This document shows positions 4,311 to 9,953 of a DNA stretch of 26,713 bases, piece by piece. Position 1 is the first letter of the stretch, and each line of letters opens with the position of its first letter. The translations under genes were made by a program, and so were the position numbers. Below the pieces are notes generated by a model. It made no database searches. It had not been told where the DNA came from and worked only from the letters and a program-made list of their open reading frames with translations. The stretch is from Nitrososphaeraceae archaeon (GTDB lineage Archaea > Thermoproteota > Nitrososphaeria > Nitrososphaerales > Nitrososphaeraceae), in contig DATGZA010000065.1 in the NCBI GenBank assembly GCA_035297365.1, positions 1 to 26,713 on the forward strand, given 5' to 3'.

Positions 4311-5708
4311 CTATTCTATAGCACATGTTACGACTTTCTCTAGTAACCAAATTTTCTCAAAAGAGATAATATATGTAAATATAGATTCTTCTTTATTAGT
4401 ATAAACTGCAAAATATTTCTCTGTATCTTGTGTAGAATCTTTTTTTGTATCCAATACCATAGCTTTTTCTAAATCTACTAACATTATCATGGCGTCTGTT
4501 TTCAAAGGTTTTTCAAAGTATCTCAAATTTATATTTGGATTTTTAAATATTAACCTCTGTAAATTATTGTCTTTAACAAATGCAGATACATGCAGCAAAA
4601 TTCTAATGAATAGTCCTTCATTCGCTCTTTTATTAACAAGATATAACAGATCTTTTATTTCTGTCGCTTCCAACCACTTAGGTGCACAAATCAGGATACT
4701 TATTTCGCTTTTTGAATAATTTATCAATTCAAAAAGAAGAGTGTGAATTCTTTCTTTATGTTCTATATTTTCTATAAATGGCTTATTTTCTCCTAAAAAT
4801 TCCTTAAAATTTCCTCTAGAAGAAATTACCTGTCTATTGGATTCATCTGCATTAAACGTATCATCAAGGTCTTTATTTAGTAAATGACTGAGTTTGTAGT
4901 ACCAAATCAAAGCTGCGCTTAGAAACAAATATGCAAATGCATATATCAAATTCCATAGCCACTCAGTAACCAAAATAAGATCATCACTAATAGTTGATGT
5001 ATATGTATATCCAAAGTCTGCAATTGTTACCAATGTCATTGAAACACAGAATAACATCCAATGATAAATGAAAGGATCTTTTTTTGGTAACTTGTAAATA
5101 ATAAGAAGAGCAGAAATAAGCAAGATTGTATCCAATACATAGTACAAGATATTGATAGCAATTTCTAAAGATTCAGAATTGAAATCAATTCCATTGATTA
5201 TCATATGAACGGTTGTTACTACAGGAATTAAAGAAACCACAAAAGATACAAAAATAATAGTGCTACGAGAAATCGATTTATTCTTATTAACAACATTAAA
5301 CGATTTGTAAATATGATAAATGAGGAAACCGTATCCTATAAAATAAAACAATTCTGCAATAGACGGGTAAGGAACAGGAATATTTAGTACCGATTGATAG
5401 AACAAGTATGTAGCTTCGCCCAAAAACCAAAAAACTATGCCGATTAAAACAGCTTTGAACTTTCTGATCTCCATTTTTTTAATATGAGTAGTTATCAAAA
5501 GCAGCGATATCGCCGTACATATACCTAAAAATATTAATGTGACCATACTATTGTATTTATTAGTTTTTTCTATATCAATCAAATAGATTATTAAATAGAT
5601 AAAAAATGTGCTTACGGCAGCAGTTAGTAAAAAACCAGAGAACAGATATTTTAATTCATATTTTACTCTGAATAGGACATCTGTTTTTGAACTTTCGAGA
5701 TTATACAA
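4311..5708 (-). CDS. Multi-pass membrane sensor-like protein with a C-terminal PLD/TrmB-effector-like domain and no kinase domain
   Basis: About 8 hydrophobic segments including W.LGE...PYPSIAELFY. The C-terminal domain (SKSEISILI...IRILL...IMLVD...YTN...FEKIW) parallels the middle domain of the kinase. TTG start. Confidence 0.8.
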   Translation of the reverse strand: MYNLESSKTDVLFRVKYELKYLFSGFLLTAAVSTFFIYLIIYLIDIEKTNKYNSMVTLIFLGICTAISLLLITTHIKKMEIRKFKAVLIGIVFWFLGEATYLFYQSVLNIPVPYPSIAELFYFIGYGFLIYHIYKSFNVVNKNKSISRSTIIFVSFVVSLIPVVTTVHMIINGIDFNSESLEIAINILYYVLDTILLISALLIIYKLPKKDPFIYHWMLFCVSMTLVTIADFGYTYTSTISDDLILVTEWLWNLIYAFAYLFLSAALIWYYKLSHLLNKDLDDTFNADESNRQVISSRGNFKEFLGENKPFIENIEHKERIHTLLFELINYSKSEISILICAPKWLEATEIKDLLYLVNKRANEGLFIRILLHVSAFVKDNNLQRLIFKNPNINLRYFEKPLKTDAMIMLVDLEKAMVLDTKKDSTQDTEKYFAVYTNKEESIFTYIISFEKIWLLEKVVTCAIE

Positions 5709-5926
5709 CTATTTGTTATATATTACTGATCCAATGATAATTATTTATTCTTTTTTCCATTCTTTTTTCCAGTATGATTTTCTCGTGTTTCTAATGTACT
5801 ATTATTTTTTTCAACCAAAAATATTGAATTAAAAAAATTTCAAATAACATATTCGATGTTTACCTAGAAGACATGTTTATTATTATCAGACTTTTTGTAA
5901 TTTGTATCAACAATAATATTTTACTC

Positions 5927-5950
5927 AAATTTTTCGGCGCCGAAAAATTT
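5927..5950. promoter_or_regulatory. Perfect 24-bp palindrome AAATTTTTCGGCGCCGAAAAATTT; candidate ParB-binding (parS-like) site
   Basis: Self-complementary over all 24 bp with no loop. It has an 8-bp pure-GC core in AT-rich intergenic DNA and lies about 106 bp past the parB stop. The palindrome is certain; the function is inferred. Confidence 0.6.
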
Positions 5951-6056
5951 TTGTTTGAAAAAATTACACATCCTGAAGTAAAATGATAGAAAAAATATAC
6001 AAAAAATGAAAATGAAAATAATGATAACGAAAATAATGGAAATGGAAAAAAATTAT

Positions 6057-6920
6057 CTAGATTTTCTTTTTCTCTTTTAGCAAGATATCTATCTGACTAT
6101 GAAGCATGTTTTTGTGCTGCATCAATATCTCATACACGGTCCAGTTATCCTCAACATCTTCAATTATGGAGGCCAGTTTATTCATTGCTACTCTCACTGC
6201 AATGATAGCCTTGTCAAAAGATTTCTGCGTCCTTGCATCAATATCAACGATCTTGGTTTGAAAATCAAAGATTTCTTCAGGATGCTCGGAGTTTTTCATC
6301 TCATCTTTTAACATACGTACCTGTCTTGAAGAAAGCTTTCTCTTTTTAATCAATTCAGCCAATTTAGATTGAATTTCTTTCTCTTTTATTGGAAGCAATT
6401 CCTCTGCAAGACTTGGTTTTATCTCGTTGTTTGAGATTGATTCGATTAGAGTTTCGGGAAAAGTTAACATCCTTATGCGTTTATCAATATAACTTGCACT
6501 TTTACCCAATTTTGTAGCAAGCTCAGATATTCCACCCCAACCGTAGGTAGATACGTAATCTTTGAATGCACGTGCTTCATCTATTGGATTTAGATTTTTA
6601 GAGTGAATATTTTCCATCAGGGATACTTCAAAAGCATCTTTGTCATCAAGTTCTACAACATGACAGAGAATTTTACGCCATCCAAGCATTTTACAAGCAT
6701 TGTATCTTCTTGTACCAGCAACAATTTCGTATTTTGAATCATCAGTCATCCTTACAATTATAGGCTGAAGAAGACCTTTTTCCTTTATAGAATAACATAA
6801 TTCATGCATATCCTCATGCAGATTATTTCTGTAATAGTACTTGAATGGTTTAATCTTTGAGATGTCTACATTCTCTAGGACTCCAATTACACTGTTTGAA
6901 GTGGAATGGATTTTTTGCAT
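6057..6920 (-). CDS. parB: ParB/RepB/Spo0J family partition protein
   Basis: SIKEKGLLQPIIVR, YEIVAGTRRY.A (GxRR CTP-binding motif), EN...LNPIDEA, and HTH SELATKLGKSASYIDKRIRML. Own TATA-like TTATATA about 22-28 nt upstream. Confidence 0.93.
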   Translation of the reverse strand: MQKIHSTSNSVIGVLENVDISKIKPFKYYYRNNLHEDMHELCYSIKEKGLLQPIIVRMTDDSKYEIVAGTRRYNACKMLGWRKILCHVVELDDKDAFEVSLMENIHSKNLNPIDEARAFKDYVSTYGWGGISELATKLGKSASYIDKRIRMLTFPETLIESISNNEIKPSLAEELLPIKEKEIQSKLAELIKKRKLSSRQVRMLKDEMKNSEHPEEIFDFQTKIVDIDARTQKSFDKAIIAVRVAMNKLASIIEDVEDNWTVYEILMQHKNMLHSQIDILLKEKKKI

Positions 6921-6996
6921 GTGAAATATTCAGTTACAGACTATATAACCTTGTTGGACCTACGTAAGAACTATAAAAAGAATTATTTTTTATTTT

Positions 6997-7863
6997 CTAG
7001 TCATTTGTTTCTAATTTTTCTATAAGTGCGTAAATCTTGCTTGTAAATGGATGTTCAGGATATAGCAAACTGGTAAGAAATTCTTTTTGACTAAACTGGA
7101 TATCACAATAACATGGTATTTCTGAAATAATATCCAGATTTATGTCGCGGGATAATTTTTGCAATGTACTTTGTTGAGTTTGTTGAGAAGAAAAAGAAGA
7201 CCCATCTTTTCCTTTATTATTTAATGTTATCAATGGATGATGCTGCTCTGGAGGAATGGTACAGTAACCGGAACCTCTATTTAGTAAAAGATAACACATT
7301 GTTCCAAATTTAGTAAATGAGCCATAAATCTCACTGGCCATTCTTTTGGTACCGTCAACATCAAGGTCACCCATTTTCAATGTCAAAAGAACGACGTCGG
7401 AAACAGCAAGAGCATTGATTGACCAATATCTCACTCCTGGACTTGTGTCGATGATGATAAAATCAGCATTTTTTTTCATTATCAGTTCTTCTCTTAATAG
7501 TATAAAGTTTCTAAGGAATTGCATTTGAGAACCTTGTTTAGATATGTTTCCATCCAGTTTGTAAATTTCTTCCTTATTGGAGTTTGCCATACTTACAAAT
7601 AATTTACCTTTTATATCAGATGAAATTGTTTTAGTAATATCAATACAAATGTCATCAACTGAGGCATTACCGAAAAGAAAATCATTTATCCATTTTTTTG
7701 GATCTTTTAAGTCAAAATATGAACCCAAACTTGGAGCATAAACATCGAGATCTAAAAGAAATACCCTATATCCTTTCTTTGCCAATAGTACACTGAGATT
7801 GGTTGCTATTGTTGTCTTGCCTGTTCCACCTTTGTAAGAATGAAAAGCAATGCATCTAGTCAT
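6997..7863 (-). CDS. MinD/ParA family ATPase
   Basis: Deviant Walker A KGGTGKTT, LLDLD, and Walker B IIIDTSPG. Directly upstream of parB. Confidence 0.92.
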   Translation of the reverse strand: MTRCIAFHSYKGGTGKTTIATNLSVLLAKKGYRVFLLDLDVYAPSLGSYFDLKDPKKWINDFLFGNASVDDICIDITKTISSDIKGKLFVSMANSNKEEIYKLDGNISKQGSQMQFLRNFILLREELIMKKNADFIIIDTSPGVRYWSINALAVSDVVLLTLKMGDLDVDGTKRMASEIYGSFTKFGTMCYLLLNRGSGYCTIPPEQHHPLITLNNKGKDGSSFSSQQTQQSTLQKLSRDINLDIISEIPCYCDIQFSQKEFLTSLLYPEHPFTSKIYALIEKLETND

Positions 7864-7936: not shown

Positions 7937-8305
7937 TCATACTAGTACTTTTTCGATATGTTTCAAGAGCTCATCTATTGAGATAGGCTTTTGTATAAAG
8001 CACTTATGATCCATATTTGGGTATTCCTCTAATAATCCTTCATAATATGCCTTAAATGAAGTTATGAAACAGACTCTCAGATTGGTATCTATTTTTTTTA
8101 ATTCCTGAACTAGTTCAAATCCGTTCATTCCTTGCATTCTGATGTCTATAAGAGATAAATCGTAAATTCCAGGTTTAAAATTATTTAAAGCAATTTCAGG
8201 ATCATTAAAGGTATCAACGCTATAACCACTGTTTTCTAATCCTAACTTGAAGGATAAAGTAGTACCTTGATCATCGTCAACAATGAGGATCTTCTTTTTT
8301 TCCAT
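7937..8305 (-). CDS. Single-domain response regulator (receiver only)
   Basis: ILIVDDD acidic pocket, phospho-acceptor in LIDIRM.GMNG, FITS and KP. 122 aa with no output domain. Confidence 0.95.
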   Translation of the reverse strand: MEKKKILIVDDDQGTTLSFKLGLENSGYSVDTFNDPEIALNNFKPGIYDLSLIDIRMQGMNGFELVQELKKIDTNLRVCFITSFKAYYEGLLEEYPNMDHKCFIQKPISIDELLKHIEKVLV

Positions 8306-8404: not shown

Positions 8405-8426
8405 ACTGACTGACTGACTGACTGAC
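8405..8426. repeat. (ACTG)5.5 tetranucleotide simple sequence repeat
   Basis: actgactgactgactgactgac, intergenic between the kinase and the response regulator. Confidence 0.9.
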
Positions 8427-8483: not shown

Positions 8484-9953
8484 CTATTTTTCTGTTTTTA
8501 TAGGGATAGTAAAACTAAATGTCGCACCTTTGTCTTGATTATTCTCTGCCCATATCTTTCCGCCATGTTTTTCTATTATATTTTTGCAAATATATAGTCC
8601 TAGTCCTGTTCCTGATTTTGAACCCGTTACAAACTTTGTAAATAGCTTATCTTTTATCTTTGATGGAATACCAGGACCGTTATCTGTGATCTTTACAAGC
8701 ACATCGTTATTTTGTCTCTGTACCGATACAATTACTTGGCCTTCTTCTAAAATCTTTATGGCATTATTGATAATATTTAAAAGAACTTGGTTTACACGTA
8801 ATTTGTCCGCAACCAGTCTAACTGACTTTTCTTTACTCTTTAAAACTAAACTAATATTTTTACCTTTGGTTTGATTTTCCCAGTCACTTAATAGATCTCT
8901 TAAAGATTCCATTAAATCAAATTCTTCAAGATTAAGAGTTAAAAGCTGACCATCGATACGAGCCACATCTAAAAGATTATCCGTAAGAAACTGAAGTTTT
9001 TTAGCATTGCTGACAATTATCCTAAGTAAGTCCTCCTTCTTATCAGGATCAAGGTTCTTGTTAGAAAGCATAACTTCGGCAAGACCTAAAATAGGCTGAA
9101 TTGGATTTCGTATCTCGTGTGCTGCTTCATTAATAAATTGTCTTTGTGTCTGGCTTGTCTCTTTTAATTGCTGGTAGAGGTCATCTGCTTTTTTATAGAT
9201 ATCAGCCTGTTTCCACAAATTCTCGAATATAGACACATAATATAATACTGTTGACTTGCTATTTGAATACGTGGATAATCCAATCGCATCAATAGAATCT
9301 TCGGCTGAATCTTTTTCTAGTTCAACTGCAAGAGAGAAACTTCTATCAATTATTAAAATAGTGATTTTGAGATGCAATGGTTCTGGTAAATACTTTATAT
9401 CTATTGCATAATCATTTTTCAGATTATCAACGGTTGTTTGTATTTTTTCATCGAAAGGAGTTAGAATTCTAATATTAACATTTTTTGATGGATCCTCTTT
9501 TATCTTTTTTATAATGGAAAATCCGTCTGCTTGATTTATTCGCCTGTAAAAGGCATTTGCAGAAGAAAATAGTAACAGAACTTCTTTTTCTGCGGATCGA
9601 ACCAGTTTAATAGCCGTTGCTAGTGCCTCTTGAGGATTCTTGATTACTTGGATATAATGTTCTTTTGATTCAATATCTATTTCTCTTATTTCATCATAGG
9701 AAGGTACAACTTTGTTCCAAAAAGGATCTGAAATAATTTCTGTATTTCCTGTAAAACTTGTAATATTTTTTCCATAAAAATGGTCAAGTCTTTTGAACAT
9801 GGTGACACATTGATTTGTATCAAAAAAATACTTAGATCCAGAAATAGATTCTTGAATAATTTCGTTAGGGTCCCTATTTATTAGAGATTTGCCACACAGG
9901 GAACATTTGAATTCAGTTTTGTTATTTGAAGTATTTATATGATTACTCATCAT
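8484..9953 (-). CDS. Soluble sensor histidine kinase: TRASH/YHS-like + PLD/TrmB-like + HisKA + HATPase_c
   Basis: H-box FINEAAHEIRNP, N-box LLNIINNAIK, G1 DNGPGI, F-box LFTKF, G2 GTGLGL. No transmembrane segment. N-terminal CSLCG...FFDTNQC. Confidence 0.95.
   Translation of the reverse strand: MMSNHINTSNNKTEFKCSLCGKSLINRDPNEIIQESISGSKYFFDTNQCVTMFKRLDHFYGKNITSFTGNTEIISDPFWNKVVPSYDEIREIDIESKEHYIQVIKNPQEALATAIKLVRSAEKEVLLLFSSANAFYRRINQADGFSIIKKIKEDPSKNVNIRILTPFDEKIQTTVDNLKNDYAIDIKYLPEPLHLKITILIIDRSFSLAVELEKDSAEDSIDAIGLSTYSNSKSTVLYYVSIFENLWKQADIYKKADDLYQQLKETSQTQRQFINEAAHEIRNPIQPILGLAEVMLSNKNLDPDKKEDLLRIIVSNAKKLQFLTDNLLDVARIDGQLLTLNLEEFDLMESLRDLLSDWENQTKGKNISLVLKSKEKSVRLVADKLRVNQVLLNIINNAIKILEEGQVIVSVQRQNNDVLVKITDNGPGIPSKIKDKLFTKFVTGSKSGTGLGLYICKNIIEKHGGKIWAENNQDKGATFSFTIPIKTEK

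Follow-up and report, generated by a model that had tools for sequence, protein, structure and literature searches.

A candidate parS-type palindrome linked to a ParB family of Nitrososphaerales chromosomes, in a cassette with two-component signalling genes

We analysed a 26,713-nt stretch of DNA from a Nitrososphaeraceae archaeon (GenBank assembly GCA_035297365.1, contig DATGZA010000065.1, positions 1 to 26,713 of the forward strand), referred to below as the window; it is contig C65 of the assembly G000 (2.52 Mb, 110 contigs, 30.5% G+C). On its minus strand, genes for a histidine kinase, a receiver, a ParA/MinD-type ATPase and a ParB-family protein are followed by a perfect palindrome and then by a membrane protein gene. 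The reading that we rank first is that the invariant 16-bp core of the palindrome, TTTTCGGCGCCGAAAA (5931-5946), is the cognate parS-type site of this ParB in a dispersed, signal-coupled system resembling KorB/IncC; taken whole, with binding included, we regard this as an even call. That the palindrome is the ParB's own site is, on comparative grounds, very probable. The best explanation of the sequence comparisons is a ParB family native to Nitrososphaerales chromosomes, whose members would read TTCG-N4-CGAA-type palindromes beside or inside their own genes. In this genus the site is multiplied, with ~14 exact and five near-exact intergenic copies over the chromosome. The features of the locus are as follows.

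5927-5950, no strand: proposed cognate parS-type ParB site, a perfect loop-less 24-bp palindrome (read from the sequence)
6057..6920, minus strand: ParB-family protein, 287 aa, with ParB/Srx domain, helix-turn-helix (HTH) as well as a C-terminal pair of long helices
6997..7863, minus strand: ParA/MinD-superfamily P-loop ATPase, 288 aa, of a lineage-specific subfamily
7937..8305, minus strand: CheY-like receiver-only response regulator, 122 aa (Pfam Response_reg, 7.5e-21)
8484..9953, minus strand: histidine kinase, 489 aa, HisKA and HATPase_c by Pfam, which opens the conserved block
4311..5708, minus strand: Nitrososphaerota-specific multi-pass membrane protein, 465 aa, a downstream neighbour and not a conserved part of the cassette

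Linkage of the palindrome to parB

The first-pass annotation had described a perfect palindrome behind parB, and both the open reading frames (ORFs) and the palindrome were confirmed at the coordinates listed above, the distance from the parB stop codon being 106 bp. Its statement that the window holds no further copy of the core also held, since the 12-mer core is single even with two mismatches allowed (0.09 expected; at least one in 7 of 100 shuffles). Relatives were grouped by ParB identity, with clade A comprising sequences at least ~70% identical to the window ParB, and 80 related loci were scanned for variant palindromes. Among the 20 clade-A loci with a complete parB 3' end, the exact 16-mer lay at most 130 bp downstream of parB in 14; three others had one mismatch, one had two, and two were without a site, one of them with just 56 bp of downstream DNA and the other, L087, being an orphan second copy without the ATPase. 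Thus, 17 of 20 testable loci keep a palindrome with at most one mismatch downstream of the orthologous parB. Beyond it, the next gene varies among species, an indication that the site moves together with parB rather than with the membrane protein gene. The latter occupies that position in only three clade-A loci, and one more has a 31% identical paralogue on the opposite strand. Since the gene in that place differs between species, the earlier proposal that the site regulates the downstream membrane protein gene in particular is not supported. The membrane protein itself had no match in Pfam or NCBIfam, and its atlas clusters are all labelled 'hypothetical' and belong to Nitrososphaerota.

The exact 16-mer was present in all 24 congeneric genomes (1-15 copies each) and in none of 16 genomes from other families. 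In a survey of 201 genomes of the order with at least 90% completeness, the 14-mer occurred in 7/7 congeners and in 9/193 others, the latter with 1-3 copies. As a blind test, five of these nine genomes were examined for the distance between site and parB. In three of them (G126, G146 and G043, of which G146 is a complete genome of 3.0 Mb), the sole genomic copy lies within ~35 bp of the end of a parB whose product is 47-50% identical to that of the window. The nearest copy in G158 is 1.27 kb from parB, and the copies in G117 are on other contigs.

Sister clades with 43-58% ParB identity have variant palindromes in the same place, with the cores GCGGCGCCGC, CGACGTCG, GCGGTACCGC and TTTGGTACCAAA. 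In clade B (36-43% identity), TTCG-N4-CGAA palindromes of 14-18 bp lie inside parB, at codon ~160 just past the HTH, and changes in one arm are matched on the opposite arm such that the dyad is kept. Such intragenic palindromes were found in Nitrososphaerales and relatives at L121, L122, L125, L127, L133, L134, L144, L148 and L149 (and L035, L036). Perfect palindromes of at least 16 bp were present between -10 and +150 bp of the stop codon at 12/17 loci of clade A and 9/30 of the sister clades, against a background of 0.004-0.019 per 160 bp (0.019 for the sister loci), and an internal one of this length was found in 5 of 26 clade-B genes. Retention beside orthologues, sole copies in other genera and variant palindromes in diverged clades together argue that the palindrome is tied to parB, as the first-pass annotation had supposed. 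Single-site sister ParBs are encoded at L106 and L120, in metagenome-assembled genomes (MAGs) labelled Nitrososphaera sp. and Candidatus Nitrosocosmicus sp.

A second ParB paralogue (G000:C14:241645-242460, L029; 36% identity, helix GKSEEYVSHRIQLL) is present in all 24 congeneric genomes searched. It is located ~64 kb from a weak second Cdc6-like gene, and no palindrome was found beside or within its gene.

Dispersed copies of the site and their placement

The G000 genome contains 14 occurrences of CGGCGCCG, each embedded in the identical 16-mer TTTTCGGCGCCGAAAA. The reversed control pattern had none, and the chance expectation for the 16-mer, estimated from base composition, is ~1e-4 copies; the palindrome is therefore far beyond chance and is a real feature. 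With 14 exact copies genome-wide, it is a motif dispersed over the genome, and the notion of a site confined to the parB locus was abandoned. In five further copies the core has one mismatch and the T4/A4 arms are unchanged; three of them are the same hybrid, TTTTCGGCGTCGAAAA (G000:C7:42969, C48:18920 and C60:52158), which also occurs at four places in G012. This hybrid joins a half-site of the genus core to a half-site of the CGACGTCG core found beside sister-clade parB, and such sites suggest tolerance at that half-site position.

All 14 exact copies lie outside ORFs of at least 100 aa, compared with 61 of 122 for composition-matched words of the form TTTT[CG]N6[CG]AAAA. Neighbouring genes encode receiver and cyclase-receiver proteins, thioredoxins, plastocyanin, CDC48, proteases and a TIR-SIR2 protein. 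A common regulon was considered and rejected, as the functions assigned by Pfam to 62 ORFs around the 13 other G000 sites were heterogeneous. Paralogous genes for adenylate/guanylate cyclase-receiver fusions do recurrently have a copy 100-1000 bp upstream (G000:C10:6998-8116 and G000:C11:112049-113238; L050, L052, L060, L066, L068), and a 31% identical paralogue of the membrane protein gene in the window, on G000:C10, has a palindrome ~800 bp upstream. Distances from site to start codon are broad, from 84 to >1000 bp, with only a loose group of 6/37 at 84-112 bp. Avoidance of the restriction site GGCGCC was rejected as an explanation, the genome having 49 occurrences against ~30 expected from composition.

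The placement of the site is partly retained between species: of the 15 sites in G017, six are syntenic with G000 sites, as are four of the seven fetched from G012. A comparison of three species, which covered three syntenic spacers as well as the 3' end of parB, showed the palindrome as an island of identity amid diverged flanks. To the left of one G000 site (24874 on C35), by ~130-230 bp, a perfect hairpin is followed by a stretch containing GTGATGA (G000:C35:24640-24760); this is kept in G017 and G012 amid diverging flanks, is possibly a C/D-box-like small RNA, and had no match in Rfam. Likewise, nothing in the window or in four site-bearing loci matched Rfam.

Some copies are bordered by a conserved repeat of ~520-560 bp, which contains a conserved hairpin and a 34-aa hydrophobic ORF reading toward the palindrome. 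Such places are G000:C20:4143-4700, G000:C14:200250-200808, G000:C60:46890-47050 and L054, L057, L058, L059, L063 (G017) and L068 (G012), and the 34-aa ORF lies at G000:C20:4430-4534 (minus strand) and G000:C14:200404-200508 (plus strand). The far end of the L063 repeat is bounded by a second, one-mismatch palindrome. The repeat, which had no match in Rfam, may represent a type I toxin-like or small membrane-peptide module, or else a mobile unit by which the site is spread. Several contigs end less than 100 bp from a copy of the palindrome (G020:C185:3-18, G022:C359:2-17, G024:C143:27-42, G020:C38:58-73, G012:C2:73-84 and G022:C60:82-97). The palindrome or its adjoining repeat therefore appears to break short-read assemblies, and copy numbers from fragmented MAGs are lower bounds.

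The first-pass annotation had asked whether the motif is enriched near parB or at the origin, and the genome scan supported the former in relatives and not the latter, as no clustering at orc1/cdc6 was seen. In G017, five of the ten contigs share the 15 sites between them; orc1 is on a contig of 1.8 Mb, where 470 kb separate it from the nearest site. Two G012 sites lie 64-71 kb from orc1, and the G000 contig with orc1 has no site. The complete genome G146 has its single site at a distance of 346 kb from orc1, i.e., 11.5% of 3.0 Mb. Complete genomes with a clade-B ParB also have parB away from orc1 (in G032, of 1.58 Mb, it is at 871 kb and orc1 at 1.4 kb). Given the dispersed sites, an origin centromere is unsupported, and the arrangement is unlike an origin-proximal centromere, which is the less likely reading; the origin comparison used fragmented assemblies and leaves room for a loose bias toward orc1. 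SMC is encoded in these genomes.

ParB and the other products of the cassette

The window ParB is a genuine member of its family, passing the cut-offs of ParB_N (PF02195, 82.9 bits vs. 26.3), HTH_ParB (PF17762, 64.7 vs. 22.6) and TIGR00180 (130.7 vs. 58.45). Its score with the Noc model TIGR04285 was 162.6 bits (1e-47) against a cut-off of 315, and thus it is not a Noc equivalog. The best sequence matches in the Protein Data Bank were to Noc (7ng0, 1e-27) and Spo0J (1vz0, 3e-27). An AlphaFold2 model of the protein (predicted local distance difference test score, pLDDT, 86.3) was matched by Foldseek to Noc (7nfu, 2e-13), ParB-CDP, Spo0J and KorB (8qa9, E 9e-9), to the DNA-binding domains 6y93 and 6s6h, and weakly to the N-domain of pNOB8 ParB (5k5d, E 3.6e-6, TM 0.38).

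The motifs of the protein are AGTRRY, MENIHSK and GKSASYIDKRIRML, the last being carried by the HTH, which aligns with those of Noc and Spo0J and contains the helix KSASYIDKRIR. Box II GxRR is kept, as AGTRRY aligns with the aGeRRw of Noc and Spo0J; indeed, G69, R71 and R72 are invariant across 32 family members, and the box I Arg is kept. The box III Arg is lost: the window ParB and all listed clade-A sequences have ENIHS, in contrast to nearly all listed sister-clade sequences, which retain EN[ILVM]QR. In bacterial ParB, the ENxxR and GERR residues take part in the binding and hydrolysis of cytidine triphosphate (CTP). A regular-expression search for the ParA-activating peptide ([LIFVM]G[KR]G[LIFVM] or LG[RK]GL) found none in the window ParB, and the peptide was seen in 0/76 family members within the first 60 residues of the match. 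No bacterial-type C-terminal dimerisation domain was detected, in that nothing in Pfam matched beyond residue 209 at E<=0.01 and a PF23552-type domain was not found; instead, the model has long helices at 222-255 and 260-286 (block-mean pLDDT ~89-96), a pair that is conserved in the family. The peculiarities to which the first-pass annotation had drawn attention, i.e., ENIHS, the missing LG[RK]GL peptide, the helical C-terminal tail, GTRR and KSASYIDKRIR, were all confirmed.

The product of the gene upstream of parB has a deviant Walker A motif (KGGTGKT), IIDTSPG and, by alignment, an invariant PCYCDIQF motif. It matched AAA_31, CbiA and ParA of Pfam and fell below every NCBIfam equivalog cut-off for ParA or MinD (NF041546, 64 vs. 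180; archaeal MinD, 56 vs. 202), and its sole match among solved structures was an archaeal MinD over residues 1-72 only. The earlier designation of a ParA partner is therefore correct as regards an adjacent ParA/MinD-superfamily gene, but the protein is a MinD-like, lineage-specific ATPase. Among 21 clade-A loci whose upstream DNA is long enough, 16 have the ATPase gene upstream of parB, as against 0/56 more distant loci. Two paralogues stand alone elsewhere in the genome (C61 and C94), with no ParB, receiver or histidine kinase gene as neighbour; that on C94 (G000:C94:3016-4257, L151) is just upstream of a gene for an ArsA/GET3-type ATPase with an HSP20-like domain. A predicted complex of two ParA-like chains with ParB had a median score of 0.28, the mark being 0.32, and is neutral either way.

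The make-up of the cassette given in the first-pass annotation (ATPase, ParB and site) was right as far as it went and overlooked two conserved upstream genes, those for the histidine kinase and the receiver. In 16 clade-A loci all four genes, from kinase to ParB, are kept as a block, and the receiver gene is upstream of parA in 17. Receiver orthologues (46-58% identity) also adjoin an orphan parB in seven sister loci, which makes the receiver-ParB pair look older than the link to the ATPase. The receiver protein has no DNA-binding domain in Pfam. This two-component linkage points to signal control. A (CTGA)n microsatellite of ~5 units occupies window positions 8406-8426, in the spacer between the receiver and histidine kinase genes.

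Most of the 24 congeneric genomes have the cassette, and the contigs that carry it reach 349 kb. Contamination is untenable, considering that the window contains ordinary chromosomal genes (multicopper oxidase, ZIP transporter, DtxR-type repressor and HtrA) and that the G017 cassette shares a 135-kb contig with a CDC48 gene. Origin from an integrative and conjugative element (ICE) with a TFIIB-ParB pair was likewise rejected, as no TFIIB or conjugation gene adjoined parB in the window or in 28 sampled loci.

In RNA libraries, parB, parA and the receiver gene are all covered by contigs of four metatranscriptome runs, which come from three studies. Three of the runs also have a contig that spans the junction between the receiver gene and parA; the membrane protein gene is represented by short, low-depth pieces only. 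Such contigs show presence in the libraries and not transcript ends or levels. Neither 5807-6080, which includes the palindrome, nor the parA-parB junction was covered in the four runs, from which nothing follows, and contig ends differ between runs (6084, 6105, 6195 and 6286). Summed contig depth, a poor measure, was several-fold higher over parB than over parA in all four runs, and the 76-bp spacer between the two genes (6921-6996) contains a TATA-like TTATATA, which precedes the ATG of parB by ~30 nt; these are no more than hints that parB may have its own promoter. Promoter-like matches were at the level of shuffles (9 vs. 8.6), with a bacterial model that is of little use for an archaeon.

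Competing explanations and known systems

In the mechanism that we propose, ParB would dimerise through its C-terminal helical hairpin and its HTH would read the two half-sites. The N-terminal ParB/Srx domain, in which GxRR and the box I Arg are kept, probably binds nucleotide, and ParB may close into a clamp and spread locally. The receiver, once phosphorylated by the kinase, and the ATPase could modulate loading or turnover. At many dispersed intergenic loci, ParB might then bring about local gene silencing or insulation, and possibly positioning too.

Several observations weigh against this reading. The link between ParB and the site, from which binding is presumed, is a comparative one only, and two clade-A loci without ParA (L087 and L088) are without a good site as well. 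The ENxxR Arg is replaced only in the ATPase-linked clade A, and the Glu of GERR is kept in no thaumarchaeal clade; with these residues altered, CTP binding or hydrolysis may be impaired. The genes near the 13 other G000 sites are heterogeneous. The broad distances to start codons, together with the 5 of 35 sites that lie between convergent genes, leave no operator-like register. Since 3 of 14 G000 copies and 5 of 15 G017 copies adjoin the repeated small-ORF element, part of the copy number may reflect hitch-hiking and not selection on each site. Finally, a parA-type ATPase gene in the operon and a site downstream of parB are classic features of a partition cassette.

Indeed, the explanation that we rank second retains the same ParB site and assigns it mainly to partition or chromosome organisation: the ATPase would move or position ParB complexes, or the sites would load SMC or act as Noc-like landmarks, and the two-component genes would tie the process to growth signals. 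We consider it possible but doubtful. In its favour, the ParA-superfamily ATPase gene is directly upstream of parB in the clade that shows site multiplication, the position of the site after parB is that found in partition cassettes, the sites between convergent genes indicate that not all are promoter-linked, SMC is encoded, and the single G146 site and two of the G012 sites are at the distances from orc1 given above. However, the G017 sites are scattered over contigs and far from orc1, the clade-B parB is away from orc1 in complete genomes such as G032, no family member was seen to have the ParA-activating peptide, the ATPase is below the ParA and MinD cut-offs and has two paralogues that stand alone, and sister clades have ParB and site without any ParA.

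Two explanations that dispense with ParB as the reader are much less probable. The palindrome could be a structural or transcriptional element, either a T5/A5 bidirectional terminator hairpin or the end of a small repeat that travels with parB. T-runs on both strands could stop archaeal RNA polymerase, and the site often follows a stop codon by few bp (by 16 bp in the case of a thioredoxin gene and, at many loci, by 2-50 bp in that of parB); for a repeat end, nine fetched copies adjoin the conserved 520-560-bp element, and one element is flanked by sites on both sides. We nevertheless think this improbable. The core is identical in 14/14 copies, with no compensatory variation, a pattern more in keeping with recognition by a protein than with a folding element; relative to shuffles the RNA hairpin shows no unusual stability (z -0.54), the terminator scan gave no terminator-like match, and the homologous palindrome of clade B lies inside the parB reading frame. 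Moreover, 11 of 14 G000 copies are not beside the repeat, and in three genomes the sole copy adjoins parB. An operator of some other DNA-binding protein, e.g., an unrelated transcription factor of the genus that also controls parB, seems marginally less probable still. The sites are intergenic, dispersed and regulon-like, and ParB is a presumed reader; yet the palindrome type changes with ParB clade across genera and stays attached to or inside parB, no other DNA-binding gene was noted among the Pfam-scanned neighbours in a sample of loci, and the receiver has no DNA-binding domain.

A broader form of the proposal is tentative, and we rate it well below an even chance. It envisages a native, vertically kept, canonical ParB-parS family in Nitrososphaerales that acts as a receiver-wired, phosphorelay-controlled clamp, to which one soil genus would have added a MinD/ParA-like ATPase, a histidine kinase, ~15 sites and a remodelled pocket. 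If true, it would be an independently evolved, signal-controlled archaeal machine for partition or organisation, and the first bona fide chromosomal ParABS-type system in Archaea, against the view that such pairs are contamination. More generally, bacterial-style ParB systems have been regarded as essentially absent from archaeal chromosomes, and here the cassette sits in an archaeal gene context with a clear candidate site. The pair of canonical ParB and site is directly testable and relevant to archaeal chromosome biology, and experiments would be feasible if cultured relatives also carry a sister ParB and single site. A new site specificity would be added to the ParB/Noc/KorB family, ENIHS is a natural variant of the nucleotide pocket, and the link between ParB and two-component signalling was unexpected.

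Among known systems, bacterial ParABS (Spo0J/ParB-parS-Soj) shares the order parA-parB-site, a 16-bp palindrome near parB, multiple copies per chromosome and the architecture of ParB_N plus HTH_ParB, with TIGR00180 above its cut-off. The present system differs in its site sequence, in the lack of orc1 clustering and of the LG[RK]GL peptide, in its MinD-like ATPase below ParA cut-offs, in having ENIHS for ENxxR, and in that no PF23552-type domain was detected. Noc of Firmicutes gives the best sequence and fold matches and is likewise a ParB paralogue with many dispersed palindromic sites. However, the window ParB is below the Noc equivalog cut-off, has a ParA-like partner and shows no sign of a membrane-binding N-terminal helix, and there are ~14-19 sites here compared with ~70 for Noc.

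SegAB, AspA-ParB-ParA of pNOB8 and HpaAB of Haloferax also pair an archaeal ParA-type ATPase with a site-specific DNA-binding partner. According to the accessible text of these sources, the centromere binders are SegB and HpaB, with DNA binding through a ribbon-helix-helix motif, or AspA, and pNOB8 ParB is not the site reader (PMC13722703, PMC5120986), whereas here a canonical HTH ParB is the likely reader. ParB homologues have been noted earlier in Thaumarchaeota (PMC6563490, PMC5797428), and ParB-TFIIB pairs were described in thaumarchaeal ICEs by Krupovic et al. (PMC6563490); the accessible text of both papers describes no binding site for the ICE ParB (PMC6563490, PMC5797428). In those elements ParB is coupled to TFIIB, unlike the parB loci sampled here, which have no TFIIB or conjugation genes beside them. 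In our literature search, neither a thaumarchaeal parS nor this motif was found to have been described, the sole 12-mer match being in an unrelated virology paper. A 2025 survey of the ParB-CTPase fold, in its accessible text, treats archaeal parAB pairs as probable contamination and canonical archaeal ParBs as unlikely to act in segregation, and its supplements may list these genomes (bioRxiv 10.1101/2025.10.10.680097).

KorB is, in the accessible text of its description, a CTP-dependent sliding clamp and long-range repressor (PMC11790492). Relative to KorB-IncC/OB of the IncP plasmid RK2, the window ParB has 20-21% identity over the structural match and belongs to an archaeal chromosome instead of a plasmid, with histidine kinase and receiver linkage, a C-terminal helical hairpin and the box III Arg missing; a KorA-like partner was not seen, no search having been aimed at KorA-like genes. 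What the two systems have in common is an HTH ParB, a gene for a ParA-type partner and about a dozen dispersed, mostly intergenic palindromes, and we count as shared the recurrence of sites near paralogous signalling genes. Judged from sequence, the system is thus an archaeal chromosomal one of the ParB/parS-KorB kind, with a new site, two-component coupling, a remodelled nucleotide motif and predicted binding of ParB to its palindrome.

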